DNA from: Hormiphora californensis
Lineage: Eukaryota; Animalia; Ctenophora
Direction: 5' to 3'
DNA: 64,000 nucleotides
Assembly (NCBI GenBank): GCA_020137815.1
Contig: CM035356.1
Coordinates: forward strand, 1,364,001 to 1,428,000
In this document: piece by piece, positions 6,436-59,435 of the stretch
Layout of the letters: each line of letters starts with the position of its first letter
How positions within the stretch are numbered: position 1 is the stretch's first letter
Notes under the pieces: generated by a model
Told to the model about the DNA's origin: nothing
Database searches by the model: none
The model's input: the letters and a program-made list of their open reading frames with translations, nothing else
Made by a program: the position numbers and the translations under genes

Positions 6436-6471
6436 AACTTTTCAACACTACTTTAAACAAATTAATTTGAG
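6436..6471 (+). other. Genomic copy of ctenophore spliced-leader exon (36 nt)
   Basis: AACTTTTCAACACTACTTTAAACAAATTAATTTGAG, identical to the copies at 16887-16922 and 58756-58791. Matches the Pleurobrachia SL as I recall it. Confidence 0.88.
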
Positions 6472-6492
6472 GTGCGGCATCCTCCACCTCAA

Positions 6493-7332
6493 ATGATTTC
6501 AGAAGATATGTCCTCTACAAATACAACTGAGGAACAACTGCGGATAATCTCGGAGCTGGTAGCTGAAGCGGATACCCCTGTCAAGGAGGTGCTCCAAGCC
6601 TATGATCCTGAGTTGACCTATGAGGAGATGCTACCGAAGATCGAAACACTCCCTGTAAGTGACCTAGAGGCTACTGCAGCTTTCCTCGGACAAGAGGTGA
6701 CATGTGTGACTGGAGCGAAAAAATACCACTCAGAGAGAACACTGTCAGACTGGATTATCATGAGGACTGAGGCTCTCTTTCCCCAAACATGTAGAGAGTG
6801 TAGTGAATCCTATACGGTGAAAAGGACTGATACACCCCCTGTTCGGTGTAACTATTGCGATGCTGGACTTCACAACTGTGCGGCTATCCGTGCTGAAGCT
6901 GGGAACACAACCAACACAAGGAGCCGAATATGGATGTGCAACGACTGTGTCTCAAAACATACTATTGAGAGGTTCAACAGTCACCTACCTGAGGGAGGTC
7001 CTCCAAACCCTACTCTTAATTCAACTCGACGCAGTTCAAATAGAGAGGTATTGGACAGAAGGACCAGTCAGCCTGCTGGCGGACGGAACGATCTTGCTGG
7101 CAGAAGGAATAATGGCCCACCTACCGGTGGAGATACAGGGTCGGACACGGAGGTTTGTAAATTCTACCTGCAGAGGAGATGCCGACACGGCAAAAACGGA
7201 ACCGCCAGGGTTGGAAACAGAACCTGCCCAAAAGCCCACCCCACCCTGTGTAAAAAGTTCTGTAACTATGGAACCATGAGGAGATTTGGATGTAATACTG
7301 AAAATTGCAACCTATTTCATCCTCCCCTTTAG
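6493..7332 (+). pseudogene. Non-LTR retrotransposon ORF1 (PHD finger + CCCH zinc fingers), 3'-truncated, SL-headed
   Basis: CNYCDAGLH..WMCNDC (PHD-like) and CKFYLQRRCRHG..CPKAHP..CKKF..GCNTENCNLFHP (CCCH), typical of CR1/L2-group ORF1. The frame ends abruptly at the junction with the host MITE. Confidence 0.75.
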
Positions 7333-9014
7333 CGGCTAAAGTAGGGTTAGGGTTAGGGGCTAGGGCTAAAGTTTAGCCCTAGCCCCTAACCCTAGAAACC
7401 GTTGCTTGGTGAATGGCGTGAATGGCAGTCTAACTTGGCAAAGAAACCGTGAGTGAATGTGTGTTGGCAAACGCTGCTGGCCATCGCTTGGGATAAGGCA
7501 GCGCTTTTCAAGACTGAGTGCTGACACTCAAAAAAGTAAAAACCCAGATTTGAACGTTTCCCAGTTGCAGCTGCAGTCTAGTGGTTATAAGGAACCATAA
7601 TAAAGTTCAAGAGCCTCCAAGAGCGCACCACAATCAAGAGAGACCAAAATCAAGAGCACACCACAATCAAGAGAGACCAAAATCAAGAGCACACCACAAT
7701 CAAGAGAGACCAAATCAAGAGCGCACCACAATCAAGAGAGACCAAATCAAGAGCGCACCTCATCCAAGAGAGCTCTCTATCCAGAAGATACCAGATGTGG
7801 TGCGCTCTTGAATTTGGTCTCTCTTGATTGTGGTGCGCTCTTGATTTGGTCTCTCTTGATTGTGGTGTGCTCTTGATTTTGGTCTCTCTTGATTGTGGTG
7901 TACGGTGGCTGATTCACGCCAACTTTTTTCTCGATGAAAAAATATCAAAGAAAAATTACGAAGAAAAATTTCAATGAAAAAAAACACACACAAACTTTTT
8001 TGGCGTGAATCAGCCACCAGCCATGGCTGATCTCCGCCAACGTTTCGCAAAAAAACATTGGCGTGAATCAGCCACCCCATGGCTGATCCACGCCAAGTGC
8101 GCGCGCGTGCGCACTGCTTACAACGCATGCTTTCATCATTACAATGTCCGCGCGCTCTTGTTACCCACGTGCTATACCGCCAAAAGTTCTACACTCACGT
8201 TTTTCCACCATACCAAACTCTGATATGAGATATCTGGGCCGGGTGTTGATATCTCATCTCAGTTGTACATTAGATATTAAAACAGTTAATTATTCGGCAG
8301 TTGAGGTAAATAAAATTTTTCCTATTACACTGAAAGAGTAAGACTGTACTGTCCAAATATTTGTCCAATCCTGGCACGGAACATCGAAGCATCATGGTGG
8401 CAGGTACTTGTCGATCAGGTTCAATGGGAATTGCCTCTCCGTCCTTTTCCTCGGTTTCGGTAAAAGAACCAAGGAACATATCGTGCATGATGTTCCACTG
8501 GACAGGAGCCACATATTTAGATGATCTCGCTGCCTGTAGGAGAGGGTGAGGGTTAGTTGATGTGTGTGGTGGTATCTATCAGATATAAAATCAAATATAA
8601 GATCTATGAGATATAAAATCATCAGCACCTAATATTTATATTAATTAGGCACCTAATATTTTCTTACCTGAGTCCTGATGATCAGCACTGGAATGAGTCA
8701 CAACTAGAATGTTCCGGGAGAGAGCGAAGCGAACTTGATAACATCCCTCTGAAAGGAATAGAATATTACTTATATACTTGTGTATAAAACCAGTTGTGAA
8801 TAGATCTGGATGGAGCCACGTACCTTGAGGGGATGGCCTGTGCTGGTGCTGTCACATGATCATAGTTTATCCAGAGGAATCCTGTTTCTGTTGCTATAGT
8901 CGGCTGTCTTGCCACTGTGGAGAGGGAAAGATTGATTGAAATAGTGATCAGAGAAAGATAAAAATAGAGTGGATTGTACAAAAAATGGGCAGGTAAGTAG
9001 ACCTTTGACCCTAA

Positions 9015-9461
9015 GGGCGCGATCACACAAGGATCTTCGAAACAATTGCTTCGAAGAACCAAGTTGAATCACACACAGATCTTTCCTTTAGTTGGTGCAA
9101 GTACGATCCTTATATGGAGCGAGCTCGCTCTCTCCAATGTTATCCCCTCTTTTGAGCTCTCTCTCCCACTCACTCTCTCTCTCTCGCGCGCAATTATCCC
9201 TTATATGGAGCGAGCTCGCTCTCTCCAATGTTATCCCCTCTTTCGAGCTCTCTCTCGCACTCACTCTCTCCCACGCAATTATCCCTTATATGGGGAGAAA
9301 AAGCGAGTGGGAGAGAGAGCTCGAAAGAGGGGATAACATTGGAGAGAGCGAGCTCGCTCCATATAAGGATCGTACTTGCACCAACTAAAGGAAAGATCTG
9401 TGTGTGATTCAACTTGGTTCTTCGAAGCAATTGTTTCGAAGATCTTGGTGTGATCACGCCC
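9015..9461. mobile_element. PIF/Harbinger-type foldback MITE
   Basis: GGGCGCGATCACAC...GTGTGATCACGCCC ends, TAA TSD (9012-14 and 9462-64), ~150-bp inverted arms. Confidence 0.88.
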
Positions 9462-9876
9462 TAATATAGGGCTGTTATATTCCCCCTAACTCATGACTGA
9501 TGATGTTAGCACGGTCACCATACTACTACTACTACGAGTGCCTGGGCTTGCCAACGGCAAGCCCACATAACAGGGGACTATAATCTCAAGTGATATCGCT
9601 GCAGCACTAGGAGAGCAGCCCCCCAATCCCCACGAAGAAACATGAAGTTACATCGGTGACCTGTCATCTGACACGAATCACTCGAAGGTGGCTCAAGGGT
9701 TGGAGGTGCGTCTCACCATTGCAACCAACTTACATCATTCAGCTGGGTATAAATCAGATCCACACTCTCCATATGGCTCACAAAGAGGAAGGTAGGTTCC
9801 TCCACCACACGCACGCTCAGGACAGGGATGGCCAGGATATCAGGATATGACTTCAGCAATTAGTAATATGTGTTAA

Positions 9877-11175
9877 GGGTACACCTCGGCGAAATTTTTG
9901 TCGAGTGCCCGCTTAGCTCACCATATGGGGTTGTAGGGCATACCCAGGGGACCTCAAATATGCAATTTTAGCCCTTAACTCGAATTCATATTTTTGCTAT
10001 AGCCCCTCAAAGTTGGAAAAAATAGGACCCTAAATCGCGGTTTTTAAGGTCCCTAAATTTTAATTTCAGGGCTAGAAGGCTGAAATTTTGGGGATTTGTA
10101 GAGGATACCAAGGTGTATCAGTCCAAGCGGTGATTTTTGAAATGGTGCTCAATTTTTTGTCTGAGACCATTTTACATTTTTTCGACTTTGAGGCCATATT
10201 TGGACATGTTCCTATGGACCGTTAAGGCTAAAAATCGGATATTTGGTGCTCCTAACAATTGTCAAAGTAGCCACAAATTTTCAGGAGGTCCGAATTTGAA
10301 ATGTGGCCTACAGGTTTCTTTTTGTAAAGCACATATTTTAGGAAAACTTAAAATGGCTATATCTCAAAAACGGTAGGTCCTAGCGATCTAATTTTGTGCT
10401 AAATCGATTCAGCGGATCCGATTTTGGGGGGGTTGTCTCATAGACATTTTGCTCTAAGTCTAACCGTTTTTTCAGAAATCGTATTTTAGATTTTTACACG
10501 TTTAGCAGAAATAGGTAAGATTAGCTCTAGCTAGAAGCATTTCTGCTAAACATGTACAAATCTTAAAATACGATTTCTGAAAAAACGGTTAGACTTAGAG
10601 CAAAATGTCTATGAGACAACCCCCCCAAAATCGGACCCGCTGAATCGATTAAGCACAAAATTAGATCGCTAAGACCTACCGTTTTTGAGATATAGCCATT
10701 TTAAGTTTTCCTAAAATATGTGCTTTACAAAAAGAAACCTGTAGGCCACATTTCAAATTCGGACCTCCTGAAAATTTGTGGCTACTTTGACAATTGTTAG
10801 GAGCACCAAATATCCGATTTTTAGCCTTAACGGTCCATAGGAACATGTCCAAATATGGCCTCAAAGTCGAAAAAATGTAAAATGGTCTCAGACAAAAAAT
10901 TGAGCACCATTTCAAAAATCACCGCTTGGGCTGATACACCTTGGTATCCTCTACAAATCCCCAAAATTTCAGCCTTCTAGCCCTGAAATTAAAATTTAGG
11001 GACCTTAAAAACCGCGATTTAGGGTCCTATTTTTTCCAACTTTGAGGGGCTATAGCAAAAATATGAATTCGAGTTAAGGGCTAAAATTTCATATTTGAGG
11101 TCCCCTGGGTATGCCCTACAACCCCATATGGTGAGCTAAGCGGGCACTCGACAAAAATTTCGCCGAGGTGTACCC
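9877..11175. mobile_element. 1.3-kb near-perfect foldback element, TTAA TSD, GG..CC ends (Kolobok-like)
   Basis: TTAA|GGGTACACC...GGTGTACCC|TTAA. Arms of ~636 bp with a ~26-bp spacer. Identical mirror ORFs at 10137(+) and 10915(-). Confidence 0.9.
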
Positions 11176-11533
11176 TTAATCTGTAATCAATGGACTCATG
11201 CCTGGAAAGGTAACCGAGTTTAGTGAATTCAAAATGGAATTGGTAAATTATGTAACAGTAGAAGTTGCTAAATGGACCTAATTTTCAATTCAACAGTGTA
11301 CTGCAGTCTTACAATGATAAGTACACAGATACAGTATTAATACACTGTACACTGTACACTGTAAACTGTACAGTGTACAGTGTCACATTGCAGCGAACAT
11401 TAGGCAAGTACTGCTACAGTATACTGGAATATTAGCATATGCTATTATGTATTATTACTCCTTGAGACCCACCTCAAAATATAATAGTAGTGGCATTTGA
11501 AGTCCGATAGCATTCACTTCATTTTCAGTTTAA

Positions 11534-12116
11534 GGCTATAAGCATACTGATCGTGATGATCATAATCAGGTCAGTGTGCGGACGTTTTGATGGTCACCAT
11601 CAAAGGAGCGCACACACTGATGGTTATCATCATGATGGAGGCTTGATGCATCATGATGTTCTCAAACCATAGTGTGTTCACGTTTGATCATCATAAACCA
11701 TAGTGTGCTCACGTTTGATCATCATAAACCATGCTCAACTTGCTGGAACTTGCCTTTTGATCATGATCATCATGACCAGTGTGCTCAGCATGATGATGCT
11801 ATCTCCCGGGAGCTCCCCCTTGCCTAGTCGCGCGCTCTGAGAGGCTGTTGCATATCACGTGACCTGTACAACAGCCTCTCGCGCGCGCGAAGTCGTACCA
11901 CGTGGTACATATCACATGACTACAGTGCAGCCCTCCATAAGAATAAGATCAGAACGTGCGCACACTAGGTGTTGATGATCATCATCCAACTTAAGAGACG
12001 TGATGATCATAATGTTCCGCACACTGCAGTTTTTTGCAGATGATGATGATCAAAACCATGAGCACACTTCATCTTTTTAACTGATCACGATCATCACGAT
12101 CAGTATGCTTATAGCC
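11534..12116. mobile_element. PIF/Harbinger-type MITE
   Basis: TAA|GGCTATAAGCATACTGATCGTGATGATC...GATCATCACGATCAGTATGCTTATAGCC|TAA. Confidence 0.88.
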
Positions 12117-13648: not shown

Positions 13649-14648
13649 TCAGTCAACAAAATCGCACATGGAGATGGGAGGAGGGGCTGTGAAGTTTTTT
13701 CTGGTACCCCTCAGAGAAACCAGGGTACTTCTCAGCAGGCAGAACCTGATCCTGATCCTGATGAAGTTAATTGTCTCTGGATACTTGTCATGGTGTTTAC
13801 CAGAGATGCGAGTAGCCAGCTTTTTAATGAGTCTCTCAGCTTCTGGTCCGGCACCTCCTGAGGTGGACATAACAAACGGGGTGAATGCTCCTTTCTCTGC
13901 CTCTCTGATACGCTGTTGGTAATAGCGTTTCTTTCTGCTTTCGTGGAGTCTGTACAGAGCTCTGGGTTCTTTATCTCTGTAGCTCGGAGCTGTTGGGTGG
14001 AATACTGCCACGTCTATGTGGGCTCCCTGTAATCTTCTCCATAAGCTAATAGCATATCATCACTGCGAGCATCAGGTGCTGTATTGACACTCTTGGGGTA
14101 GTCACCTGGGTTAACCGGCTGTAACACTTTCTCGATTTCAACACCCTTGTATCCTGCATGGGTAATAATATCTGCAAGGGTATCTCTTATCTCGTTGTGT
14201 CGCAGAATGGTAAAGTCGGATTTTTTGAAACTGTCACCCCCCTTTTCACGCAAAATTTGTCATATCTCCGGTTCCTGATAAGATAGAGACTTATTTGGAA
14301 GAATTCGGAAGAACTTAGCATGATCTTCGTAACCTCCAAATTTAAAGTCTCTATCTTATCAGGAACCGGAGTTATGGTCATTTTAAGAAATTTGAAAACT
14401 CTAAAAAACGACAATTATTTAAAATCCGACTATATATCCTCCAGTGCTACAACTCAAGGTATGGTCTGCTCCGTTCTGTTTTCCACATACACATTCAGAG
14501 AACTGGCCGTTGATCTCAAAACCATATCTGAGGCACAAAGCGTCCGTGAACTCTGATTTGGACAGCTCTCTGTTGAATACTTCCAGGGGCCGGGCAGATA
14601 GCCAGGACGAGGCTCCCGTTTCCATGTTCAAAGAAAGTGTTCTCGCCC
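13649..14648 (-). pseudogene. CRE-clade non-LTR retrotransposon 3' fragment (zinc knuckle + restriction-like endonuclease)
   Basis: GASSWLSARPL..EFTDALCLRYG..CVCG..HTLSC..GGY/ILRHNEIRD..ARSD..FHPTAPSY..HESRKKRYY..FTPFVMSTSGG, the characteristic CRE C-terminus. Frameshifted and interrupted by a MITE. Confidence 0.85.
14214..14431. mobile_element. MITE inserted in the CRE fragment
   Basis: AGTCGGATTTT...AAAATCCGACT ends. Removing it restores GGY-TILRH. Related sequence at ~14740-14870. Confidence 0.7.
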
Positions 14649-16878
14649 ATTAATTTTATTTTGGCATACGTTGCAGGCCCCTTATAATATAATATAAGGG
14701 GCCTGGAGGGAATACCGCGCTGGGGGGGAATACATAAACAATCATATCTCCGGTTCCAGATAAGGTACAGAAATCGTTTTGGTAGCGTTGGAAAGAGGAA
14801 GATAACAGCTTTAAAATGCAACCGGTTTCAGGTCTCTATCTTATCAGGAACAGGAGATATGAACCAAACTCCGCAAAATCGAGTGCGGTAAAATAAAAAA
14901 ATTCGAGATTTTAATTCAAATTTGAAACAAAGTGTCCCTGCAGGGATCTGTGACGTCACTTTTTGAAAACAACCCATCTTTGAACGGTTATTGCTCAGCC
15001 TCCTGAAGTCCAATTTACTTCTCTCAAAAACAGCAAGGTAGATAATTGTCAGATCTAACAGCTAGTGAAAGAATCAAGTCAAACGGACTTCAGGGGCCAA
15101 AGTTATAAGCACCGCCGTTTTTTCGCTCGCAAAGTTATCTTCGACCCAGCCGGGCCCGTCCTGAGCTCAGGCCAAACGCGCGCGCGGCATTCCCTTCAGT
15201 CCCCTCGTTGCGGGGGTGCGCGCATGAGGGGGCTGCAGCGCATTCCAAAATTTTATTAGAACTCGAATCGGTTTCGCGTCCAAACTCGAAAGAAAAAAAT
15301 ATAGATCAAGAAAGAAAACTGAGTTTTGCAGCAAAACGCGCGCACCTGCAGCGCAAACATTATTATTGAGCGCGCGCGCACTTGGCGTGGATCTGCCATG
15401 GGGTGGCTGATTCACGCCAATGTTTTTTGTGAAACGTTGGCGGAGATCAGCCATGGCTGGTGGCTGATTCACGCCAAAAAAGTTTGTGTGTGTTTTTTTT
15501 CATTGAAATTTTTCTTCGTAATTTTTCTTTGATATTTTTTCATCGAGAAAAAAGTTGGCGTGAATCAGCCACCGTAGTGGTGTGCTCTTGATTTTGGTCT
15601 CTCTTGATTGTGGTGCGCTCTTGGAGGCTCTTGAACTTTATTATGGTTCCTATTGAAACCGGGTATGCATCTTTACGATGCTAAAGTCCGTTTCAAGCGA
15701 CTTGACCCGTAATTCTTGGAATTTGGCGCATTGCGCGTGTATTTACAAAGGGGAAATCCTGAATTTCCAGGAATCTCAGGTCAAGTCGTTTGAAACGCAC
15801 TTTAAACCACCCGCAAAATGGAACGCGTGAGCTGCTCCCGGCTAAAGCGCTGCCAAATTTAAGCCGCGCACAATTAATTTCGCCTCAGTAAAGTCCATTT
15901 TTATTCAACTGTTCACCCCTCAACTCGTGCGCGTGCGATATTTTAATTTACGCTGCGCGCGCTACACGTTAACATGTGATAAACGCGCAAAACAATTCCG
16001 CGCACGACTTTGGGGGGTGAACAGTTGAAAAAAATGGAGTATACAGCAAATGTTGAAAAAAGTTTTTTTTTTAAAAGGTGCCAAAGTTTGAAAAGCGCTG
16101 CCGGAAAACGTTAAAATCTGGGTGCCTTTCATTGCTAACAATTCATCGATTTTGGCGCGCGCGACGGGTTAGGGCTGTTGTTAGGGTCGGGTTAGGGTTT
16201 GGTTTGGGGTTATCGGTTAGGGCTATCGATTCTCTATCAGATACCGTTTAGTTTACTCAAATCGGCCATGTGGTTGCGCGGCTATAGCCGTTTGAAAAAA
16301 GTCGGTCTAAGTGGTTTTAGGTGTACTTTTTTGGCAGCGCGCACCTGTAAACTCGCTGCAAGGCACCCAGATTATAATCGCGCCCAGCGCTGCCTTATCG
16401 GGGGTAGTGGAAGCTCTTACGGTAATTCCCACGAGCGTGGGAAATTCTCACGCCGCGCGCATTTTTCCCACGCCGAAAGCATATACAGTGCTGACAAAAC
16501 AGCTGGGCTGCGCGTGGATTTCTCAAATTTATCGTTTCTTCGATTCAGTTTTTAGTTTTTACTCTTTAGACAAAGCTCCTTTGATTCGTTGTTTCCCTAC
16601 ATAAAAGACATTCAGATGGGGCTGCAGGCTGCAGCTGCTGATGCTCACCTCCAAACAGGTAACACAAGATAAAGAATTGCCCTTCTGTACTCTGTAGTAA
16701 TTGTAAATTGTGGTTGGAGCACCATTATTTTTGGTTTTTTCCATTTTTTCTTTTCTTTCTCCGTCTTTTTGGCCTGGGTGTCCGCGGACACCCGGACATC
16801 CACGAGTGCCGTCCCTGTGTCTCACGAGGGAGCACTAAGAATCTACAAAAATGTTAAGAAAAGATTCCTAACTGTGAA

Positions 16879-16922
16879 GAGTTTCAAACTTTTCAACACT
16901 ACTTTAAACAAATTAATTTGAG
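16879..16922 (+). other. Longest (44 nt) genomic spliced-leader copy
   Basis: GAGTTTCAAACTTTTCAACACTACTTTAAACAAATTAATTTGAG, ~57 nt upstream of the ORF1 ATG. Confidence 0.9.
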
Positions 16923-16978
16923 CAGGAAGATGAATCCGATGTAACAGCCCCAAAGGGCAGAAAAACGAAACGTTGATA

Positions 16979-17944
16979 ATGTCAGAAACGAAGTACGAGG
17001 GCGATAACCCTGCGATAAAACGATTGGAAGAGACAGTAAACGACTTTGTTTCTGAAGTTTACTGGTTGAACTCTGCTGATGATCCCAACACGACGAGTAT
17101 CACATCGGATCAGTTTATTCAATGTTATAAATCGATCCAAGCTGCACCCGACTCAATGTTAACCAACGACAGTGTAGCTTCCCCTTGCAATCACTGGGGT
17201 TCGTACTTCAGTCACTGTCTCAAGGACTTAACTGCGAATGAAATTATTGAGGCTACTTCGCGTATTTTTCTCTCCAGTATGAAACTTGCCAGAGCAACAA
17301 TGAACAATTTTGAAAATGTTATCAGCGCAGAAAAACTCAAGAAGCAACTACGTGAATGCAAAGAAGAACTTGATCGCCACCGTCTTAGCGTGATTGAGCT
17401 TCAGCAAACGGTTATTGAAGCCCAAAAGCAACAACTAAGTGCAGTGTCAACTTCGGTGCAGAAGGTGAAAGCCTACTCTTCTGTGCTTGCACAGAATTGT
17501 GCTGCAACCTCCCCTAAAGTGGTAAAACCACTAACGTCGCACCACCCTACTCCCGTCCAACAGCCCGGAAGAGAGAAGAACCTGATTGTGTTTGGTCTCC
17601 AAGAAACAACCGATAGAGTAGCTAAAACTACTTTAGACGAACTTTTTGAGGAACTGCAAGAGAAACCGAAAGTGACAACGATAAAACGCATCGGGGAAAG
17701 AAATGAGAAACGTCCTAGACCGCTCTTAGTATCCCTGGAGAGGAGAGCGACTCTCCTGGCGCTTCTCAAAAAAGCACGAAACCTCAAAGACTCCAAACAG
17801 TTTTCGGCTGTTTATCTATCTCCGGATCTAACGCCCTCTGAACTGAAGGAGCAAAAAGCTCTCAGGTCCACTTTGAAACGGATACGACTAGAAGATCCAG
17901 ACGGCTGCTATTTTATCCGTAACAATGTTATCCAAGTGGGATAG
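16979..17944 (+). CDS. LINE ORF1p-like protein (coiled coil + RRM + CTD), intact, with no ORF2 (HAL1-like)
   Basis: Coiled coil followed by REKNLIVFGLQE..RIG..RPRPLLVSL..KARNLK..VYLSPDLTPSE..FIRNNVI. No endonuclease/RT follows. Possible TSD AACTGTG at 16870-76 and 18042-48. Confidence 0.8.
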   Translation: MSETKYEGDNPAIKRLEETVNDFVSEVYWLNSADDPNTTSITSDQFIQCYKSIQAAPDSMLTNDSVASPCNHWGSYFSHCLKDLTANEIIEATSRIFLSSMKLARATMNNFENVISAEKLKKQLRECKEELDRHRLSVIELQQTVIEAQKQQLSAVSTSVQKVKAYSSVLAQNCAATSPKVVKPLTSHHPTPVQQPGREKNLIVFGLQETTDRVAKTTLDELFEELQEKPKVTTIKRIGERNEKRPRPLLVSLERRATLLALLKKARNLKDSKQFSAVYLSPDLTPSELKEQKALRSTLKRIRLEDPDGCYFIRNNVIQVG

Positions 17945-18286
17945 TTCCCGACTAATTCACCGTTATCAGAGAACCGTGCTAGGAGCAGGCAGTCTGCTGC
18001 AGTCCCTTTCAAATGAAGGAAAACGAGTTGTCTGTAATTAAAACTGTGTCAGTGCGGGATATAAACTGTCATTTTTATTATTATTATTTATTATAAGATA
18101 CGGCCCTACAGAGAGACTAGATCGAATGGTACGGTACCATTGGTACTATGTAACCTGATCACACACTAGATTATAGAATAGGTAGGTGCCCCGTTGGGGT
18201 TTTCCACTGGGCACCTATGACCTACATATTCTATCATCTAGTCAAGTCTATCATCTAGTCAAGTCACAAGAGGGAGATTGGCAATA

Positions 18287-18367
18287 CAGTCGGACCCCGA
18301 TTTAGTGGCCCCCGATTTAGTGGCAGGATTTTTTCCCCGAGGATGCCACTAAATCGGGGTCCGACTG
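18287..18367. mobile_element. Tc1/mariner-type mini-MITE (CAGTCGGACCCCGAT family)
   Basis: TA TSD and TIRs. Other family members at 12205-12287, ~31984-32013 and 42808-42979. Confidence 0.8.
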
Positions 18368-18492
18368 TATGTCTATGAAAAAGTTATTAACAGCTAGGCA
18401 CAATATTAACTCTCCCTATCATCCTCTAGGTTGAAGATCGTTTAGTAAAACCACTGTGTATCTACCCGACACCACGACCATCTCTGTACAAT

Positions 18493-19756
18493 ATGATGGA
18501 CAGATATTTGGATCGGCCCTTTGTGGTAGAGTTTGTGAGAGAAAATAATTCCAGGCTTGGTATGACGCTCTGTCTAAATGAACAGGAACATCTTGCTGTC
18601 AAGAATATCGTGTCAACAGGTTAGTGCACGCTGTATATAGTTTAGAGGGGGATTTTGGAACATAGAGTGCAAGTGTGAGCACTTGAACAAAGTATCAAAT
18701 TCACTTCCATTTCCCTATATGAATGTCAGCGGGTGAAAATTTGTCTGATATACCCCGCCCGCTATTAAAAGCAAGGATGTTTTTGCCGCTAAAACTTATA
18801 ATCAATAAATCCTTGCTTATATAAAGTATAAACCCCTCCCTTTGGTAGGGTTTTATACCATATACCACCCTCCCTGCTTCGCAGGTCGGGCAGTATATGG
18901 TGCAGCGAATCACCCTAGCGGGTGACCCGCTACATATAAACCCAGGTTTATTGATTACATATCCATCACCAGGTCCTGATCCTCTCTTCACCAGATCTAG
19001 TCTTGACTGACCTCACCTCTTCCCCCAGGTCTAATATACCAAGATGGCCGTCTCCGGTCGGGTGACGTTGTCCCTGCAATCAACGATGTCCCCGTTAGTG
19101 GCCTATCATTCGAACAGGCAGCCTACTACGACAATGCAAGAATAGGGTCCGACTAACTGTAATGAATGCCAATCTTGTCCAGTGCCCCCATCCGATGCAG
19201 AGCTGGAGATGCTCTTTAATATCGGGGATGGAGATAGCAGTGCACTTACCACTCATGAGTAAGTGTCAGATCACACGTTGCTACTTGCTATAATCTCTTA
19301 CCAGTTCCAGTATCGATCAAATCACACCCCCTGCCTTGCCTTGTTCGACCTTGTTGCACTGTAGGCTAAGTTACACTATAGTAGCTGAAAAGTTACTCCG
19401 CCGTGAGTAGGGAGGGAGAATTGTTAGAGATAGAGATAGAGATGGAGATAGAGATGGAGATAGAGATAGAGATAGAGATAGAGATGGAGATGGAGATGGA
19501 GATGGAGATGGAGATGGAGATGGAGATGGAGATGGAGATGGAGATGGAGAGATGGAGATGGGGAGATGGAGAGATGGAGAGATGGAGAGATGGAGAGATG
19601 GAGAGATGGAGAGATGGAGAGATGGAGAGATGGAGAGATGGAGAGATGGAGAGATGGAGAGATGGAGAGATGGAGAGATGGAGAGATGGAGAGATGGAGA
19701 GATGGAGAGATGGAGAGATGGAGAGATGGAGAGATGGAGAGATGGAGAGATGGAGA

Positions 19757-19802
<46 letters not shown>

Positions 19803-20368
19803 ATTTCATAGTCTTTCTTTTGAATGGGATTCTTGTTGTGTGTGTTTACACATTTTTAGGAGGGTCAGAACTCAGAACATAACAACCTGCTCACACTCCC
19901 CTGATACCGAGTGCAGATCTCTCTAAACCCTGTTCATCCTCTAGGTTTGACGATCAGTAAAACTCTACACTACGAACAAATAGTGACGGTGACAATAGTT
20001 CGGCAGGCTCTTGGCATCACCATTCTGCATTCTGATTCAGGGAGGTAGCGACACACTCCAGGGCTGTATCAGGGTGTTGAGTAGTCCTGCAGTGCCGACT
20101 GAGATTATACCTAAGGATACACTGCTCAGTGTAGCTGGTGAGTACTGAACCTGATTGTCTTGTTCCACCCTGCTTCACCACGCCGCGAACAAATGTAACA
20201 TAAGAACATTGTCGAGGGGAATTCAGGAGAGGGAATAAGAGGGAATTTTTACACAATCATACATACCTAGATATGTAATAACAGCTCTCCTTGCAGGTCC
20301 TGACTAACTGTACCCACGACCGAGCACTAGAGATAATGAGAGAGGCTCCCATTCAAACCACATTTTAG
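18493..20368 (+). pseudogene. Multi-PDZ-domain gene with frameshifts (pseudogene or assembly indels)
   Basis: RLGMTL..LAVKNIVSTG / LIYQDGRLRSGDVV..INDVPVSGLSFEQAA, frameshift, then LRQCKNRVRLTV. Second PDZ: IQGGSDT..KDTLLSVAG / VLTNCTHDRALEIMREAP. Confidence 0.65.
19427..19801. repeat. Compound microsatellite (GAGATR)n-(GGAGAGAT)n-(GA)n
   Basis: Direct read. Confidence 0.97.
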
Positions 20369-21565
20369 TTGCCCCGCCACTTCGGATCCCGGCCAGATGA
20401 GAGGTACAAAATTATTGATTCTTGTCATTTCTGATAGAGGCCCACCCCATGTGACACATTAAGATAAGGAATGAAGCGGAGAAGACTGAAATCATCCCTT
20501 CTCAGAAGAGATGATTTGTGTCTCTTTCTCAGCTAGACGGTTGTCTTTTTGAATAGTCGATAAACCAAATTATAAAAGGAGCATGGTACTGGACGCTCTT
20601 TTAACTAACATTCCCTCCCCCTCCCAGGATTATGCCGAGTACTGGTTACAACACCCTCTCTAGACGATTAATATCATCCCATCTACAAGATATGTGTATC
20701 TAAAATCGATGCCTTGAATCAGCCGTTAGACCCGTTTCCCATAATAATATAACGGAATTCGACTAACTACGGTACGGACATCGGACACGTCTACTAAAGT
20801 TAGACACGGAGCTGTCACTGTCCGCATTCCCTACAAGATGCTGCTGTAAATTGAGATTTATAGGACTATAATTATCGTTAGATTAGGATATCAGATCACG
20901 AACTCTTTTTACCATGTTCTAGGGTTTGAACAAAACTCTTTGAGAATATTATATACATACATATATTGTGATCGATAAGTAGTGTCCAGAAAGTTAACAA
21001 TTGTTTGTGATCTGTCTTCTTAGAACTTTGCGTTCAATTTGTTATAAATCCATCTAATCAAAGAATATTTATTTTGTACCCAATATATCGATTAGGAATG
21101 TTTCGGCGGAGGGTGAAACTTTCATACTTTATCGTTGTAATTAGACGACGCTGGGGCTGGTTACAGCCATGACAGCACTCTTGGACTGGTTTCCCTTCCA
21201 CCGAACTGTTCCTCATTGATGTTCCAACGTCAATGATGCAATCCATTGATGCAATGTGGCATGTGTGTGCAGTGTGATTGTAACGAAATTCTCAGTGACG
21301 TGCTGCTGCTGCAGTGCTCCGATGCTCGCGGCGCTACCCAAATTGGCCCAATGTTGTTAACAACTGCATCCTCAACATTTTAGTAGACGTCACGCGCGAT
21401 AATTTTTTGCGCGTCGAAAGCAAAGCGTGGGAAAAGAGGGCGCGGCGTGGGAAATGTTCCCACGGTGCGTGGGAATTACCGTAAGAGCTTCCACTAGGGC
21501 CAGCAACGTTTGCCAATGCCAAAGTTAACGTTAAAAGTTAAAACTTGAAAAGCGCTGCCCTATAA

Positions 21566-23119: not shown

Positions 23120-23318
23120 TAAATTTTTACCAGTTTTAATATGCATTGTATATTTCAGTATGTAGTTGAAATTAAAAAAATTTATTCAAACTCCTCATTT
23201 CATTTTTTTTGAGCATCTCCCCGCACGATCAACCTGTTTTAACATCACTATACTGTTTGCTAGGAAACTATGAATTAGGGGACGATTGGGGAAGGTAACA
23301 CCGCCCATAACCTCCGCC

Positions 23319-26300
23319 ATGGCCGACCAACAACACCATCAAAATCAACAACAACTGCTACAACAACAACAACTGCAACAACAACAACAACTGCTACAAC
23401 AACAACAACAACAACAACAACTGCAACAACAACAACTACAACAACAGCAGCAGCAGAGGGCGAAATTCAACTTTAAAAGCAGGAACGTTGCTAAGAACAT
23501 TACAACAGACTACCTATCCTCCCAGTTGGAATCTTTTGGTAGCACCTCTAAGTTGGCCTCTCTACCTAAACCTGCTCCCCAGCAACAGCAACCGGGTCAG
23601 ATTGGGTTCCAAGGAATGATGATGCCCCAGCCTGGTGGGTTCGGGATGAATGCAAACATGCAAATGGGACAAGGGTATGGAGGTTTTGGGCAACAAGGTT
23701 TCCCTCAAATGCAGTCTGGATTTGGCCAGGCACAGGGCGGTTTTGGCCAGGCTCAGAGTGGATTTGGACAGGCTCAAGGCGGTTTTGGGCAACCACAGGG
23801 CGGTTTTGGCCAGGCTCAGAGTGGATTTGGGCAGGCTCAAGGCGGTTTTAGCCAGACTCCGGGCAGTTTTGGGCAGGCTCAAGGCGGTTTTGGGCAGTCT
23901 TCTGGATTTGGTGGTCAACAAGCTTTCAGTCAGCCTGGATTCGGTCAACCTACCACCAATCAATCTCAGACATCTGGGTTTAGTCGACGACAATCGCAGC
24001 CAGGGTTCAATCAGCCCAATTTAGGTCAACAACAACCTCTGTCAGGTTTCAGTCAGGCACCTTTCACCCCATCGTCATCATCAACAGGATTTGGAGGTCA
24101 ATCAGGAATGTTTTCTGCTACCCCTTCCTCTGGAAACTCAACTCCTCAACCTAGCACTGTCGGGCTTTCTTTTGGGTTCAACTCTCTTTCCATGCAGGAA
24201 AGTAACAAGCCTGCCCCTGCAGCTAGTGATCAGTTTTCACACTTGGATACTTTATTTAGGAGTAAACCTACAACACCAGCTGCACCTGCGGATCCTTTCC
24301 TGAACCTCCGACCAAACGATGGGCTTGGTGGTGGTGATTTCAATCCCTTTCCTGATGCCAAGCCTGCAGCTGCTCCATCAGCTACTACATCAGCTGCTGT
24401 ACCCTCTGCTGATCCGTTTCAAGGCGGGGCATTTGGATCTGCTGCTAGTGATCCCTTTGGAACTGGTACATTCTCTGGAACTGCTGCTGAAACACAGCAG
24501 GACCTATTTGCTCAGGTTCCCACTAAAAGTAAAGAGGTTGACTTGTTCGCTGCTCCTCCTCCTCCTGCTGCTGCTGCCCCTAAAACGGAGCAAGTTAGCC
24601 TCCTGCCCAAACCACCAACCAAGAAGACAGTTCGCAGCGTCAATCGTTAAACCCCGACCCACAGCTGGTCACAAAGGTATTCCACCTCCATCAGGGGCTA
24701 AACCACCACAGCCACCTCGGCCAGCCGCTAGCAACCAACCCCAGCCACCGCGACCAGCTGCCAGCCAACCATCACAAGCCCCGAGTTTACCGGCTCGACC
24801 TACTCCACCTCCATCACTGCCAGCTAGACCCACACCGCCTCCATCGCTTCCCGCCCGGCCTACTCCCCCGCCCCCGAGTTTACCAGCCCGACCTACTCCA
24901 CCTCCTGCCAGCCAGCCCACTCGACCAACTCCACCTCTTGCCAGCCAGCCCACTCGACCAACTCCACCTCCTGCCAGCCAGCCCACTCGACCAACTCCAC
25001 CTCTTCCCACCACGACTCTGGCGGATAAGTACAGTGTGATAAGCGAGTTCAGTAACATGGAGGATAAAGGAAGTATATTCGGTGAGCAATCCAGTGAGCA
25101 ATTTGGGGTATTTGGAGCACAAAACAGCAGTAATGCCTTCACAACTGTAGACCCAACACAGAAAGATGTGTTTGGGATGAGCAAGTCTACCGACTTGTTT
25201 TCTCCTCCTCAGCCTGATTTGTTTGCAGCACAACAAACTTCCCAACCAACTCAGGATCTATTCGCTAAACAGCAGCCTGACATGTTTACAAGCCAATCAT
25301 CTAAACCAGACCTGTTTGCCCAAACAACTGCTCCGTCACCCAAACTGGACCTATTCGCAAGCCTCCCATCCACAAATGCAGGGCCATCGTCTGATCCTTA
25401 TAGTGCGTTTGCTGCTTTAGAACCTCCCAAAGAGGAGAACGTGTTTGGAAATCAGGGTGGTGGTGATATTTTCTCTGCAGGAGGCAATGTGTTTGCTGCA
25501 CCAGAACCAGTACAGAGCACCATTTCCCAGCCCACACAGCCGAACCAGGGTGACCTATTCGCAGCACAACCACCTGTCCAACAGCCCGGAGATTTTTCCA
25601 ATTTTGACAGCATGTTTACATCTCAAGATCTATTTGCAGCGGACAATAAACCCAATCTGCCTCCTCCCTCGACTACAGGAGGAGATCTGTTCGGAGGGGC
25701 CAAAATAGAGCCCTCAAATCCGTTCTTCACCTCCCGGGAATCACCCAACCCGTTCACCACAACAGAAGACCCATTTGGTGCAGCTGCAGGTAGTGATCCG
25801 TTCGGAGAGGGAGCATTTAGTGGGGACCCATTTGTACCCAGTAACAGGGCAGCCAGTGGAAGTTCATCCAGTGATCCTTTCAAGCTGACAGAGGATCCTT
25901 TCTCGGGAATCAAACGAGAACGACCCCGTGGGGTGAGTTACATCTAATTAGTAAATCTTACTAAAATAACTAGTTAGTTTTTGGAATGTTTAGATTTCGT
26001 GGGTGATTATTGAACTAATTGTTTCAGATACCAACAAGTAAACCGGCAGTCCCATCCAAACCTAAAACACTGGGTGGAGCCCCTACAGTTCCCAGGAAAC
26101 CAACTGTACCCTCTAAACCGGTGTTGCCTCCAAAACCAGGAACTGTTGAGGTAGATGGCGCGGGGAGACCTACAACTCGGGTTAGTAATACTGGGGAAAC
26201 ATGTTGGGAATTAGTTGTTAAATGTTACCCCCCCCCCCCCAATTTCTACTTTCCCTTTCTAACCCCTTCAGGATATAATGACGTCACGACATAAAAAGAA

Positions 26301-29300: not shown

Positions 29301-29879
29301 CACACTCACTCCCTCCCTCTAACACACATCTCCCTCCATCATACACCTCCCCTCTCTCACAACTGACACACTGTCTCCCTCACCCCCTCTCTCCCTCCCT
29401 CCTTCACCTCCTCTCTCTGACACTCCCTCCCCCAGGTGGTATGACACTACCTGATGATGACACACCTGCACGTGTTGAATTGGATCAACCCCCTGCTATA
29501 AAGGTCGGGGATATTCTCAGGGCCATTTATGCCTTCCAAGCAGAGACAGAAGATGAGCTTAGTTTTGAAGAGGGAGATGTTATCAAGGTATTGAATTGAA
29601 ATATTAATGTTGGGTATGGGTACTTCATACCCTTTTTTACCGACAGCCATGTGTGTATAAAGACAAAGAAGACAATCGGGAGGGGGATGGTATACCACAG
29701 CTGCTGCTGTCTGTCAATATGCGAGATTCAAAGTTAACACAAATCTTTCTCACCAGGTGACTGAATACATCAACGAGGAATGGTTGAAAGGATCAGTGAG
29801 TGGTGGCCCTGAGGGTCTCTTCCCCTCTAGTTATGGGATCCCAGCCGTCCTGGCAGGGGAGGAGGGTGGCCTTCCTTGA
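23319..29879 (+). CDS. SH3D19: SH3D19/Eve-1-like adaptor: polyQ, GFGQ repeats, Pro-rich region, DPF/NPF motifs, five SH3 domains
   Basis: Five SH3 domains (ALYEFEAENEDELTF; ALYTFEAEEEDEL; VLYEFVAELEDEL; VLADFKAENDFEL; AIYAFQAETEDEL) across GT-AG exons at 26272-29879. One apparent frameshift near 24630-24650. Confidence 0.75.
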
Positions 29880-43151: not shown

Positions 43152-43212
<61 letters not shown>

Positions 43213-49480: not shown

Positions 49481-50068
49481 ACTATAATGTGCACAGAAGA
49501 GAAAAGAAGGCACTATGTTGCAGTGTAAATGTGCTGTTAGAACGTGCATATCTAGATCTGGTGAACTCGGGAAGCAGGATAAGGTGATAGTAGCAGTTTA
49601 GTATCCCTAATTCCTGATTCATTTGAGCCCTCATCTCGTTAGATCTGCAAATTCTGGCAACACCCATCTCTAGTTTGTTGTGTTTTTGTGTGTAAGTTTG
49701 TTAGCAAGGAAAGAACACACACTGATTTTTCTTTTATCATGATGTGATATTACCAACGAGGATGCAGAATTAAAATTGTATTTTTCAGAAAAATGATTTC
49801 CTGCTGTTTTTATCTTCCCCCTAAGTTATAAAATTACTTTGTTTTATTGTCTCTCCCCTGATTCCCTTCATTATAATTAATATGTATTCTACTTAGTAGA
49901 ATATAGTAGTTATGTAGATACATTGTATCTACTACTTCCTCACTTCCTCAGCCCCCATTATACAATATTACACCTCACCATCCTCCGTTCCATACCCCTC
50001 CCTCTCTTATTCCATACCTCTCCATACCTCACTCTTTACCTCTATCTCTATCTCTCTCTCTAGACATC

Positions 50069-50443
50069 ATGCCTCTGACAAGTAGTGCCATCGCGAACAA
50101 CCTAATTCGGGATGTGTGGCGAGATAATCTTGAGGAGGAGTTTGAAAAGATCAGGCAACTTATCCAGACTTACAACTACGTATCCATTGGTAAACATCAG
50201 TAGTTGGAAAACTGTGAAACTAGGACAGTCACGTGACTGGCCTCGTTTCATGGTCACGTGACTGGCCTCGTTTCACAGTCACGTGATTCATGACGTCACA
50301 TGATTGCGTTCAACTGCAGATTACGTGATTATGATGTAAGCACGATGTAATCAAATTAATTCATGCAATTATGATAATTAATTTTCATAATTTATGACAT
50401 CACTGTGCTCAACCGCATGTCACTTATGACGTCACGTGACTGT

Positions 50444-50520
<77 letters not shown>

Positions 50521-53500
50521 ATGACTGCTCATGGAAGTCAACCGGAGAAAGCGCGTGTCGTTGCCGTTTTCATACAGCCAACCGTACCTATTACCCCATA
50601 TAGTCAGAGTGTAAACAATCTGTTTAAGGGGTAATTTAAATAAAACACATTACTCATCATCACTTTCACTCTCACATTCTTCTGCTTCAAAAGGATAGAA
50701 TTTCTAAGTTGAGCTGGGAAACGGGTCCATTTTTTCGGGACCTAAATCTATTTTTAGTAACACCCGTTGGTCGAGTGATGCATACCCGCCTTTCACTCTC
50801 AAGGTCCGTGGTTCGAATCCTGCGCTTGCCAACTTTTCGAAACACGGATTTAAATATTAGTTCACAAGTTCATCACAACCAAAAAGAACAGCACCACAGC
50901 CAAAAGGTACCATACATGATTAATTATGTCAAAACAGTTGGCACTGACAAGGGACAAGGATCACTATAGAGAAAACATGTTTGATCCTGACAGCCAAGCG
51001 TACTTACGTTTGGCTGTCAGGGTACATAACACAGCCAAAAGTTGAGCACCACAGACAAAAGTTGAGCACCACAACCAAAAAGTACAACACCACAGACAAA
51101 AGTTGAGCACCATAGGCAAAAAAGTACAGCACCACAGCTAAAAGTTGAGAACGACAGTCAAAAATTGAGCACCATAGAAAAAAGTACAGCACCACAGCCA
51201 AAAAGTACAGCGCCACAGAACAATGTTGAGCACCACAGATGCCAGAGAAAAGGCTAATAAGCCATGTACCTATAAAAGGGTGAGCATTTTCAATCATTTC
51301 AATCATAATAATCATACTATTATTAAAGCAAATAGGGAAATCCTGTGTGACGTTTTTTACCTTATATGGCATTTAGCACGTGCAGGTTTAGAGGTCGACT
51401 GTGGAGTACTATTGGAGTGGGGCCAGGGGTCGGAGCCGTTGCCAATGGCATGGTTGCTACTATACTGCACGTGCACGTGCATTTGATCTTGCTTTAGTTT
51501 GTGTCACCAGCTAATATAAATGCTCTCTTCAACAACTGTTGATATACGACAGCGACAATTGGAGTTATTCACGCAAGATCTCACCGCCATTCTCTACTTT
51601 TCCATACACTGGAAAGTTCTTTTATAACTTTGATCGCCTGATCATCATCTGACGTTCTGAAACCAGAAACTCGCAGCGATCCCGCCTGAGCTCCTTCTAC
51701 GGTACCGTAACTTAAGACGGGATAGTGCATGTCATTAGTTAGACTGATGATGTCAGTGTTCCCTAATCCAGCTACCAATACCATTTCCCCGAAATTCGCC
51801 CGTAGGGCGAACGGGTTTACTAGTAATAATAATATTAAGTTTTGTATACCGCCACAGACACGACAGGGCCAGATAAGTAAAACTGTACCTGACACTGACG
51901 AGCTTCAGAGCGGTATACCTAACGCAAAAAAGATCCTTATATTCTTACACACTTTGGAAAAACTCACTCCTAATTGTAGATATACTAAAAAGATAACTGG
52001 TCACATAACTTTCAAAAAACTGATGAGATGGAAAAAATACAGACTTTATTAAATAAAGGGAACAAAGCCAACAACCCACACTTATCAGCAGCTCAACAAT
52101 ACTGATAAAAAGCCCTAAGTGAAAGTGGTGAGCACACCTAAAGACCGCCTACTGACAGATGGGGAGTCCGGTGATCAACTCAGACGCCACCACCGGGAAG
52201 TCTTCAGGGGTAGGAGCTGGGAACGCTTCAAGGAAAAGTCTGGTTTTCAACTTAGATTTGAACAACTCAATGGGGTGTACAGATCTCAGGTCCAAAGGCA
52301 AGGAGTTCCAAACTGTCGGTAGACACCGAACCCTCCTCCTCCTCAGTTTAGAGTTTGCATTAACGCTCGAGAGTTTAGGATATTTCAGTTTGTAGAAGTC
52401 AATTACTGAATTCGCCCTCGTTGGTCTCATACCCAGAATATCATCATCCCTAGGGACCAGTTCCTGTAAATACTCCGGAGCTGTTCCACTACAATTTTGT
52501 ACGCTAACAGGCAGGCCTTGAAGGTTAGTCTCTGCTTGATTGGGAGGATATGAGCTTCCTTGAAATACTCATCATAGCTATCCTGATGTCCTCGTAAGTT
52601 ATGATGAACCGTACACAGGAGTTCAGAACCTTCTGAAGGTTGTTCAGAATCCGTTTAGGGAGTCCAAAGTACAGGAATTACAGTAGTCTATCTTTGATAT
52701 GACTAATTGCTTCACAAGAAGAATCCGTGTGCTATTATCTAAACACTTATTGAGTTGCCATGGTTCTTGAGTTGCAATCCACATTGTTTCTTAACATTGT
52801 TCACCTGCCTCTCCAGGGTGAGATGCTCATCCAGAAGTATTCCTAGAGTCTTCCCTGTGCTACCTTTGCATTCCATCGGCTGCAGCACTGTACCTCCAAA
52901 CCTGATTTCCGGATCGAATACCAGCTTCTCAAGAGAGCTTGATTTTCCAAGAAGAACAAACTCAGTCTTACTCTCATTACATTTGAGCCAATGTTGCACC
53001 ATCCAAACCAATTAAGAAGTGATAAAAGGTGGGGCCCTGTATCTTGAGAACGAGAGGGAGTAGAGAGTTCGCACTTCGACTCATCGTATTTTTATCTCCC
53101 AACCAGTTACCACACCCAGGATCGTTGAAAAAGTCAAAATTTTTTGAATATGTCAGTATCCCTTTAATGGAAGCGAGGCACTCCTCGATACTATTCTCGT
53201 ACCTTTCCACCCTTCACTATCCGTTGGACAAGTCCAACGTACAATTGGGAATCATCTGCATACAGCTTTATCATCAACCATACGGTCTAGCAATATCCTG
53301 TACTCCTCTATGTACAACAGAAACAGTACAGACCAACAAAGATCCCTGTGGTACTCCACATATGAGAGCGATGACCTCCGAGAGTTCACCATGAACATTC
53401 ACTCTGTAACTCCTGGAACTCAAATAACTCTTAAACCACCCAAGTGCACTTCCCTTCACTCCACCTCACCTCCAGCACCTCCATCAGCTTCATGATCTAC

Positions 53501-56500: not shown

Positions 56501-58177
56501 TCTGTGGTGCTCAACTTTTTGTCTATGGTGCTCGATATTGTTCTGTGGTGCTCAACTTTTTGTCTATGGTGCTCGATATTGTTCTGTGGTGCTCAACTTT
56601 TTGTCTATGGTGCTCGATATTGTTCTGTGGTGCTGTACTTTTTGGATGTGGTGCTGTACTACGTTTGCCAGCTATTTATTTGTACTTTTTGACTGTGACG
56701 TTGTTCTTTTGTCTATGGTGATGTACGTTGTATTGGGGCTATGTCGCTCTACTTTTTGGGTTGTGTTGCTCAACTCTCCTCTAGAGTTTATTTACTTGTA
56801 TTAATTGGTTTCCTTTTTATAACACTCCCACCACTATTTATAGCAAGCTATAGTGAATGGAAAAAATATGGACGAATTTCTGCAAACGTACCCGAATATC
56901 TCCATGATCTGTACCGTGAAAACGGTTCACGATTCGGAAGATTTGTAAGTAGCAAGCTAAGGATGTCTACCATTTTCCAGTTTTACCGAGTGATAAAATT
57001 GCTCACAAAGTGGACGAAGTCTTAAACAATATATAAAATGATATCAAAATAAATGTTAGATTCGGTTCTGCTTGATCCAAGAAATACTGGTGAGATCAAG
57101 TTTTCTCGTCCTTCAAACAACCCTAATGTATTTGACACCGCGAAGCTAGTATCTCAATGTGACCCAAAGGACGTTCAGAGAATTAAGGAAAACATTGGGT
57201 GGGATGATTTGATAGAAATAGCGCATAATTCAAGAGATTCACCAGCTTGGAGAGTAGAGGCAATCGTCTGTATTGAATTTGATGTAACAAAAATATACTT
57301 AACAAATGTACTATAATTATGTTGCAATATCAATAGACATTGGAAAACTAGCTGTACGTTGTTGGTAGCTGTATTATTATTAAACGTTAACTAAAAAATG
57401 TGTTTGATTTGTATGGGTAGGGAATGGTTTTCTCTGGCATCTGTGGTGGTCAACTTTTTGACTATGGTGCTCAAATTTTATCTATGGTGTTGTACTTTTT
57501 GGCTGTGGTGCTGTACTTTTTGTCTATGGTGCTCAACTTTTGTCTTTCGTTCTGTACTTTTTGGCTGTGGTGCTGTACTTTTTGCCTATGGTGCTCAACG
57601 TTGTCTGTGGTGTTGTACTTTTTGGTTGTGGTGCTCAACTTTTGTCTGTGGTGCTCAACTTTGGCTGTGTTATGTACCCTGACAGCCAAACGTAAGTACG
57701 CTTGGCTGTCAGGATCAAACATGTTTTCTCTATAGTGATCCTTATCCCTTGTCTGCCAACTGTTTTGACATAATTAATCATGTATGGTACTTTTGGCTGT
57801 GGTGCTGTTCTTTTTTGTTGTGATGAACTTGTGAACTAATATTTAAATCCGTGTTTCGAAAAGTTGGCAAGCGCAGGATTCGAACCACGGACTTGGAGAG
57901 TGAAAGCGGTTATGCATCACTCACCAACTTTACTAAAATATTTAGTCCCAAAAATAACCCGTTTCCCCCAGCTCAACTTAGAAATTCTATCCTTTTGAAG
58001 CAAAGAATGTGAGAGTGAAAGTGATGATGAGTATGTTTTTTATTTAATTACCCCTTACCCCTTTTTTTACTCTTTATTCGGTTTACTTTTGGCTGTATGA
58101 AAACGGCAACGACACGCGCTTTCTCCGGTTGACTTCCATGAGCATAATAATATTCTCTCTCTCTCTCTCTCTCTTCT

Positions 58178-58231
<54 letters not shown>

Positions 58232-59435
58232 GTCTCTCTCTCGATCCTCACCGCACGTACGTCATAAGTGACATGCGGTTGAGCACAGTGATGTCATAAA
58301 TTATGAAAATTAATTATCATAATTGCATGAATTAATTTGATTACATCGTGCTTACATCATAATCACGTAATCTGCAGTTGAACGCAATCATGTGACGTCA
58401 TGAATCACGTGACTGTGAAACGAGGCCAGTCACGTGACCATGAAACGAGGCCAGTCACGTGACTGTCCTAGTTTCACAGTTTTCCAACTACTAACATCAT
58501 TTTAATTGATAGGTGATATTTCCCTCATTCGGAAAGCTACAGTTAAATTTATAGCAGCTAATAAATTAGTTGCATTATGAAATATGATATTATATATCTT
58601 TGCAGTCCTGAGATTAAATCCCTCTCCGTGTGTAGATACTGAGTTTCCTGGTGTAGTGGCGCGACCTTGTGGGGAGTTCCGATCTCAGAATGACTACACC
58701 TACCAGCTACTGAAAGTGAACGTTGACATGCTCAAGATTATACAGCTAGGTATAAAACTTTTCAACACTACTTTAAACAAATTAATTTGAGCACTGATGA
58801 GCGGAATGTTACATTCTGTGAAACATATGTTTGCACTTTGCGTAAATCTCCGTGTTTCATTTCTACTAGGTATAACAATGATTGTTATAATTTGCGTTAC
58901 CTGCACTTCTTAAGGAATCATGCCATACAAGGCCTTGTGAGCAGAATCTAAATATTTAACCGGCGGAGAGTGGAGAGAATGATCGAGAGAGAGAGTGGAG
59001 AGATAAAGAGAGAGAGATAGATAGTGGTGAGAGATAGAGAGTTGATAGTTAGTGAGTGAGCGAAAGAGGGAGAGAATTGAGAGTTGCGAGATAGTGAATC
59101 AGCGAGAAAGAGTTGAGAGGGAGTAAACGGTTGGTTAGAATTTGCTCGCTAAACAAATCGCAGGAGCTTAATACGTTGCATTGTGGACGACCTTAAATGT
59201 CAAAATGATTCTCGAATAGAAACTTCCTCCCTGGAATTGAAATTACCCATTAAAATGGGGGGGGGGGGGGTAAATACCGTCATTCTCTCGCTGATTATAA
59301 TAATCGCGAGAATGATTTATGTATTATGCCAAAAACTAACAGAAATTAGTTGGCTGGAAAGGTGACCACTTTTGTTGTCAAACTGACACCTTTGCCCTCT
59401 CCGGGTTTCATCATTATCTTTCCCTCTCTGATTTA

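Follow-up and report, generated by a model that had tools for sequence, protein, structure and literature searches.

Why should one short sequence recur, always on the same strand, at the head of three different passengers within a single stretch of an animal genome? The window considered here (64,000 nucleotides of Hormiphora californensis contig CM035356.1; positions below count from its first letter) holds exact matches to a 36-nt repeat at 6436-6471, 16887-16922 and 58756-58791, all on the plus strand; 100 shuffles of the sequence gave no match, and no degenerate copy sharing even a 12-mer with the repeat was found elsewhere in the window. An earlier note on this DNA had taken the repeat for the spliced leader (SL) used in ctenophore trans-splicing and had proposed that the RNAs of the elements behind it were trans-spliced before integration. 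We find the identification to be correct, and we consider it fairly likely that several unrelated ctenophore retroelements carry the host SL exon, their RNA having been trans-spliced and then reverse-transcribed to or near the cap.

The identity of the repeat follows from the published leader, from the 5' ends of host mRNAs and from the SL-RNA gene. Window positions 16879-16922 are identical over 44 of 44 nt to the published H. californensis leader (PMC8527503). We scanned metagenome contigs for the exact 36-mer and obtained 15 loci, five of which are ordinary coding sequences that start with the SL (three were identified, as cathepsin, the chaperonin subunit CCT and the proteasome lid subunit PSMD13), and the SL also precedes 255-nt loose ends in an RNA run (X7). 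Another of the loci, L011, is an SL-RNA gene, with a GT donor behind the leader and 5S rRNA between successive leaders in tandem units of 778 bp (features at L011:263-381, 700-735, 1041-1159 and 1478-1513); it has a C before the leader's first A, where the published cDNA consensus has a G. The flank and intron of this gene match nothing in the window or in any other locus, and the window copies have neither the SL intron nor the gene flanks, copy 1 sharing the GT only; by sequence, they are bare SL exons and not SL-RNA genes. The match to the 44-nt leader extends over 36 nt in copy 1, 44 nt in copy 2 and 37 nt in copy 3; copy 2 is the only one complete to the 5' end of the leader, and the earlier statement that all copies are 5'-intact did not hold. 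Dispersed SL copies have been counted at 718 in Hormiphora and 491 in Mnemiopsis, with genomic copies of 35-48 bp, and are not tied to retroelements in the accessible text of that report (PMC8527503). At the density of 718 copies per genome, three SLs in 64 kb have a P of about 0.009, in a window that was chosen for its cluster.

The three passengers are, as the earlier note had it, unrelated when compared with one another: an open reading frame (ORF) 1 with PHD and CCCH zinc fingers, a LINE-1-like ORF1 (LINE, long interspersed nuclear element) and a hammerhead-shaped unit. Copies 2 and 3 were inserted precisely and are flanked by target duplications. Copy 2 spans 1,218 bp and comprises the SL (16879-16922, 42-44 nt), a 56-nt 5' untranslated region (UTR; 16923-16978) with CAG right after the SL and then the motif GTAAC-GCCC-loop-GGGC, an intact ORF1 of 321 aa (16979-17944) with a coiled coil, an RRM and a C-terminal domain, and a 3' region (17945-18094) that has no ORF2 and ends in an ATT-type repeat tail. 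Poly(A) tails were considered and rejected. The target duplication AAGA lies at 16877-16880, where it coincides with the first two letters of the SL, and again at 18095-18098; a cap-derived G at 16879 was ruled out, as this letter belongs to the duplication. No Pfam family matched the ORF1 above cut-off, and its predicted structure (mean predicted local distance difference test score 68.5) has human L1 ORF1p as all ten of its best structural matches (E 3e-5 to 4e-4), which points to a LINE-1 ORF1p-like fold in the model. The layout recurs in the SL-headed locus L014, which has an AAT tail, and a relative of copy 2 diverged by 10% is also joined to the SL (record 16 of DNA run X5); in the ORF1 cluster of copy 2, five of six members lie on contigs of 1.29-1.33 kb. 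Taken by its sequence layout, then, copy 2 is an ORF1-only, nonautonomous LINE unit.

An empty site of copy 2 is present in DNA runs X1 and X5, as a joint of 16876 to 18095 with 4 letters fitting both sides. The host is an intron (16659-18429, plus strand; RNA joint 16660-18455 in X7) of a frameshifted gene fragment whose assignment as PDZ-like is weak (E 0.007) and which sits between 72-bp inverted repeats. Its contig depth in X1 is 375, against 25-33 for CAF1 (about 11-15 times), and it is likely a multicopy captured gene fragment, so the empty site may belong to a paralogous copy and not to another allele. The 72-bp inverted repeats, at 16405-21496 around the spliced PDZ fragment, likely mark a DNA element with a captured gene piece.

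Copy 3 is 110 bp long and lies between 10-bp duplications of the CAF1/CNOT7 splice donor: the left one (58746-58755) spans the end of the CAF1 exon and the GT donor at 58750, and the right one (58866-58875) yields a second copy of the donor; the contigs of RNA run X7 do not extend over this exon. Behind its SL (58756-58791, 36-37 nt) comes a type I hammerhead-like motif (58792-58831) with its core at 58794-58800, an 8-bp helix II, GAAA at 58820, a palindromic helix III (58823-58830) and predicted cleavage after 58831, followed by the 3' strand of helix I and a short tail (58832-58865). This pattern, which starts two letters past the SL, is the only one on either strand of the window, and it combines the core, long helix II and palindromic helix III by which Penelope-type hammerheads are recognized; copy 3 thus appears to have the architecture of a Penelope-type terminal-repeat hammerhead. 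Most copies of its family are without 7 nt at about 58830-58836. The CAF1 intron of a related organism (organism B) has no copy 3 and represents the empty site, and contigs carrying the SL plus hammerhead unit are present in three DNA runs from two organisms. Helix I takes in 6 of the SL's last 7 letters in the family's majority form, a figure equalled by 2.7% of the 7-mers in the window, and a role of the SL in this helix is suggestive only. Consensus rows of loose ends behind the SL (agreement 0.44-0.83; 24 listed of 75, from mixed contigs) give a weak hint of further SL-plus-hammerhead families. A scan of prokaryote genomes for the SL plus the hammerhead core returned no match.

Copy 1 retains the last 36 of the 44 leader letters (6436-6471) and heads an ORF1 of LINE type (6493-7332) whose zinc fingers, PHD-like and CCCH, were assigned by eye and have weak Pfam support with no match above cut-off. 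At 279 aa this ORF1 is cut internally, its counterparts being 397-442 aa in six of nine relatives. It is 33% identical (E 1e-44) to that of L010, an SL-headed relative in which an endonuclease-like ORF2 start follows, and three of six members of its cluster lie on 4.7-4.8 kb contigs. Neither a tblastn search for the remainder of the element nor a search for its target duplication found anything, no ORF2 is present in the window, and an atlas search with the ORF1 gave only leads below 0.9 with CCCH fingers. Copy 1 is most likely, on these sequence features, the 5' remnant of a LINE. It is bracketed by a 22-bp inverted repeat (6355-6376 and 7420-7441), and telomere-like repeats start at its truncation point.

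Does the association with retroelements extend beyond this window? Ten of the 15 metagenome loci come from data sets without an mRNA-type match; apart from the SL gene they are all LINE-type ORF1s, nine in number and of four unrelated classes, and host retrocopies number zero among the ten. The check that the earlier note had suggested, namely to find SL cores, drop SL-RNA genes and classify what follows, points to LINE ORF1s at nine of ten DNA-type loci, in metagenome contigs rather than in the genome itself. The SL match at the nine loci extends over 38-43 nt (41-43 nt in seven of them), beyond the 36 searched. Across all 12 element copies the join falls exactly at the end of the SL exon, with no SL intron and no SL-gene flank, and none of the 12 has a tandem SL relic or a host-gene passenger. 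Five CCHC-type families, with ORF1s only 43-61% identical, have the same SL joined at a homologous position, and in each a motif resembling an acceptor lies 1-6 nt ahead of the ATG; their UTRs have drifted to about 65% column identity (SL part included), with the SL letter-perfect. Four CCHC-type contigs are 3.6-5.3 kb long and start within 38 nt of the SL. The GTAAC-GCCC-loop-GGGC hairpin motif, 12-20 nt behind the SL (16940-16960 in the window), recurs in L009, L013, L014 and partly L010, and, being common to elements with unrelated ORF1 classes, it is a candidate promoter or RNA element. An SL scan of viral contigs gave no match.

An exact exon-end join without the SL intron is the product of splicing, which makes trans-splicing before reverse transcription likely, and the earlier claim that element RNAs are trans-spliced before integration gains support from the 12 of 12 joins of this form; we regard it as very probable that the join was made in this way. 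Under our hypothesis, element RNA would receive the SL by trans-splicing, and reverse transcription would then proceed as far as the cap or close to it. In LINEs, the SL-headed form would be the replicating form, its leader being refreshed at the same junction through its own terminal AG, a weak acceptor, and the ORF1 mRNA would come from a stronger YAG downstream of the SL. Renewal at the SL's own AG is favored by the perfect SL, which keeps to a conserved junction while the UTRs around it drift, and we lean slightly toward an SL-headed LINE that replicates and renews its leader there. In one case, L013, the SL runs straight into GATG and lies 6 nt nearer to the shared motif than it does in L009, and this looks like a copy spliced at the downstream acceptor. 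Copy 3 would be part of a Penelope-type terminal repeat that had been processed, with splicing at a native acceptor beside helix I. Leader renewal is compatible with an element that has its own promoter and does not require the lack of one; a strictly promoterless cycle seems doubtful to us, and the step put forward in the earlier note, in which the genomic SL serves such a cycle as its own acceptor, is unproven. We would call it speculative that LINEs of several classes without a 5' promoter regenerate a capped 5' end at an inherited SL and that, in the Penelope-type family, trans-splicing assembles a ribozyme. If that were true, the inherited SL would do the job of the 5' self-cleaving ribozymes of other read-through elements, and it would supply the 5' strand of hammerhead helix I in the Penelope-type family.

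Several observations weigh against this account. The SL ends in GAG and has 6 pyrimidines in 12, and all 11 host acceptors that we located by hand in the window are YAG with 7-11 of 12; further evidence against a strong acceptor at the SL is that 8 of 11 LINE-type copies have YAG motifs resembling acceptors farther downstream, and that the CAF1 gene is intact with an SL lying in sense 42 nt past its donor. No SL-capped element transcript was seen in X7 among the listed contigs, none of which covers the 5' part of copy 2; this gap in coverage is not evidence of silence. The junctions of copy 2 are bridged by no contig among those listed, and the junction contigs of copy 3 include 28 and 27 element letters, below the 31-letter bar. 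The hammerhead of copy 3 has a G.U at the conserved 10.1-11.1 pair in place of G10.1-C11.1, with no common variant listed there, and it is not the minimum-energy fold; folding z-scores of the region are unremarkable (+0.3 to -1.5), and Rfam returned no hammerhead match for copy 3, only an irrelevant weak match to a small nucleolar RNA. Among the nine LINE-type loci, ORF2 is seen in six as a short, endonuclease-like start only, which we presume to be such partly from its motif; it gave one weak Exo_endo_phos Pfam match (E 0.029) and nothing meaningful in PDB or among phages. A reverse transcriptase was not seen, and the window copies have no ORF2 (endonuclease plus reverse transcriptase) at all. 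Four of the nine loci have only 1-17 nt upstream of the SL, and L013 is ORF1-like by eye only. The species and the DNA or RNA origin of the contigs were assigned from their content, the nine-in-ten share of transposable elements is overstated (an exact scan picks perfect SLs and low-coverage metagenomes favor repeats), and such a scan could not find source elements without an SL.

This last point bears on the possibility, unlikely for the elements as a whole, that source elements have retained a promoter, an outron and an AG acceptor of their own, and that the SL-headed copies are processed, mostly dead daughters. It is the preferred reading for copy 3: a 1,386-nt contig (X1 record 5) aligns with the hammerhead unit beginning with the AG at 58790, and the roughly 980 nt upstream of that point are non-SL, which hints at a native acceptor ahead of this family. 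Penelope has a 5' intron and an internal promoter (PMC8557442), and Cer1 of Caenorhabditis elegans makes both SL1-spliced and unspliced RNA (PMC3315495). The CCHC-type LINEs fit less well, however, since all five carry a U-rich UTR of 145-188 nt and an acceptor-like motif after the SL and would need two successive outrons, and the four long contigs begin at most 38 nt from the SL. Alternatively, a single capture of the SL in each lineage may have been followed by its inheritance as DNA; transcription would then start at SL +1 from an internal promoter, either the SL or the conserved motif in the UTR, and no trans-splicing would occur there. The poor GAG acceptor, the persistence of unused YAG motifs just behind the SL in L009, L010 and L014, the conservation of the UTR motif across two or three ORF1 classes, the sense position of copy 3 in an intact CAF1, no empty site being listed for it in either X1 or X5, and an SL-internal promoter proposed in dinoflagellates (PMC12014239) would all suit such capture, yet a letter-perfect SL beside the drifted UTRs would not, with the reservation that the scan selected perfect SLs, and neither would the differences in SL among ctenophores (PMC8527503); we think it improbable.

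Explanations without splicing of an element RNA can be given very little weight. Template switching or ligation to SL RNA, insertion into SL genes, cDNA contamination and misassembly gain something from the abundance of SL RNA and from the Schistosoma authors having raised chimeric assembly for their six loci (PMC5832876), but they are already contradicted for copies 2 and 3 by the target duplications and empty sites and by contigs that join the SL to a passenger in three DNA runs from two organisms. We rejected template switching on the exact exon-end junction without an SL intron, and targeting of SL genes because the insertions are not inside an SL-RNA gene and have flanks unrelated to L011.

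Orientation adds almost nothing. All copies and the VWD, PDZ-like and CAF1/CNOT7 genes are on the plus strand, as the earlier note observed when it counted three of three in sense. Copy 1, however, lies behind the last coding exon of the VWD-domain gene (4843-5895), whose poly(A) signal AATAAA at 6057 precedes it, with minus-strand exon-like segments downstream, and it appears to sit between convergent genes; either orientation would then be in sense with an upstream gene, the informative count falls to two of two, and we rejected orientation as evidence, the test being nearly empty at that size.

If the trans-splicing account is right, SL-headed retroelements provide a testable identity for hundreds of unexplained dispersed SL copies in ctenophore genomes and would explain gene models that map false shared first exons to SL copies. 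Our findings suggest that unrelated retroelements of one animal lineage converged on host trans-splicing to define their 5' ends, a convergence relevant to the way in which LINEs restore a full 5' end, and SL-headed insertions would be a dated genomic record of SL sequence change.

The window contains other repeats and coding features. A minus-strand fragment at 13649-14660 resembles what we take to be the C-terminal restriction-like endonuclease region of a CRE-type non-LTR element (LTR, long terminal repeat); a PDB search with it gave no match, and inverted repeats at 7590-8107 and 15371-15651 delimit the 8-kb unit in which it lies. Inverted repeats of 1 kb and 90% identity (50199-51238 and 57462-58492) surround about 6 kb rich in tandem units of 20-41 bp. 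We also note a 616-bp, near-perfect palindromic element at 9873-11179, similar to a miniature inverted-repeat transposable element, and an 86-bp high-copy palindromic element at 18284-18370. Long low-complexity ORFs at 23274-25947 (plus strand), rich in Q, GFGQ, DPF and NPF and in two overlapping frames, resemble an endocytic adaptor tail with a frameshift, and an SH3 exon lies at 29108-29599.

NeSL-1, SLACS, CZAR and CRE are non-LTR elements associated with the SL that insert into SL-RNA genes; the ctenophore copies differ in having flanks unrelated to the SL gene. We found no SL-headed LINE or hammerhead insertions in ctenophores in the article texts searched, so that a prior mention in supplements or repeat databases is possible, and the available text of PMC9911081 and PMC11067881 has nothing on SL-headed elements. 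In Hydra, about 30% of transposable-element Iso-Seq reads have an SL (PMC12220107), a likeness at the RNA level to what the ctenophore elements carry in integrated copies, on which the Hydra passage is silent. Dinoflagellate retrogenes likewise carry an SL in DNA as the mark of a trans-spliced, reverse-transcribed RNA, but with host-gene passengers and tandem stacked relics (PMC12014239, PMC3942190), neither of which occurs in any of our 12 copies. Copy 2 resembles HAL1, HeT-A and Ag-Sponge (PMC5786205) in coding for ORF1 only and being mobilized as a unit, and differs from them in its SL head. Copy 3 shares with Penelope-like hammerheads a type I core, a long helix II, a palindromic helix III and a short tail (PMC4209133, PMC8557442) and, like Drosophila Penelope, where the acceptor of the intron has been placed at the 5' end of helix I (PMC4209133), it has its splice junction there; it differs in that the spliced partner is the SL in trans, in the G.U at 10.1-11.1 and in that no linked reverse transcriptase was seen. 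A further parallel is Schistosoma mansoni, in which six genomic loci with the SL exon fused to transposable elements were suggested to have been trans-spliced and retrotranscribed, the elements being unclassified in the main text and assembly chimerism left open (PMC5832876); to this the ctenophore case adds target duplications, empty sites, at least four ORF1 classes and a hammerhead family.

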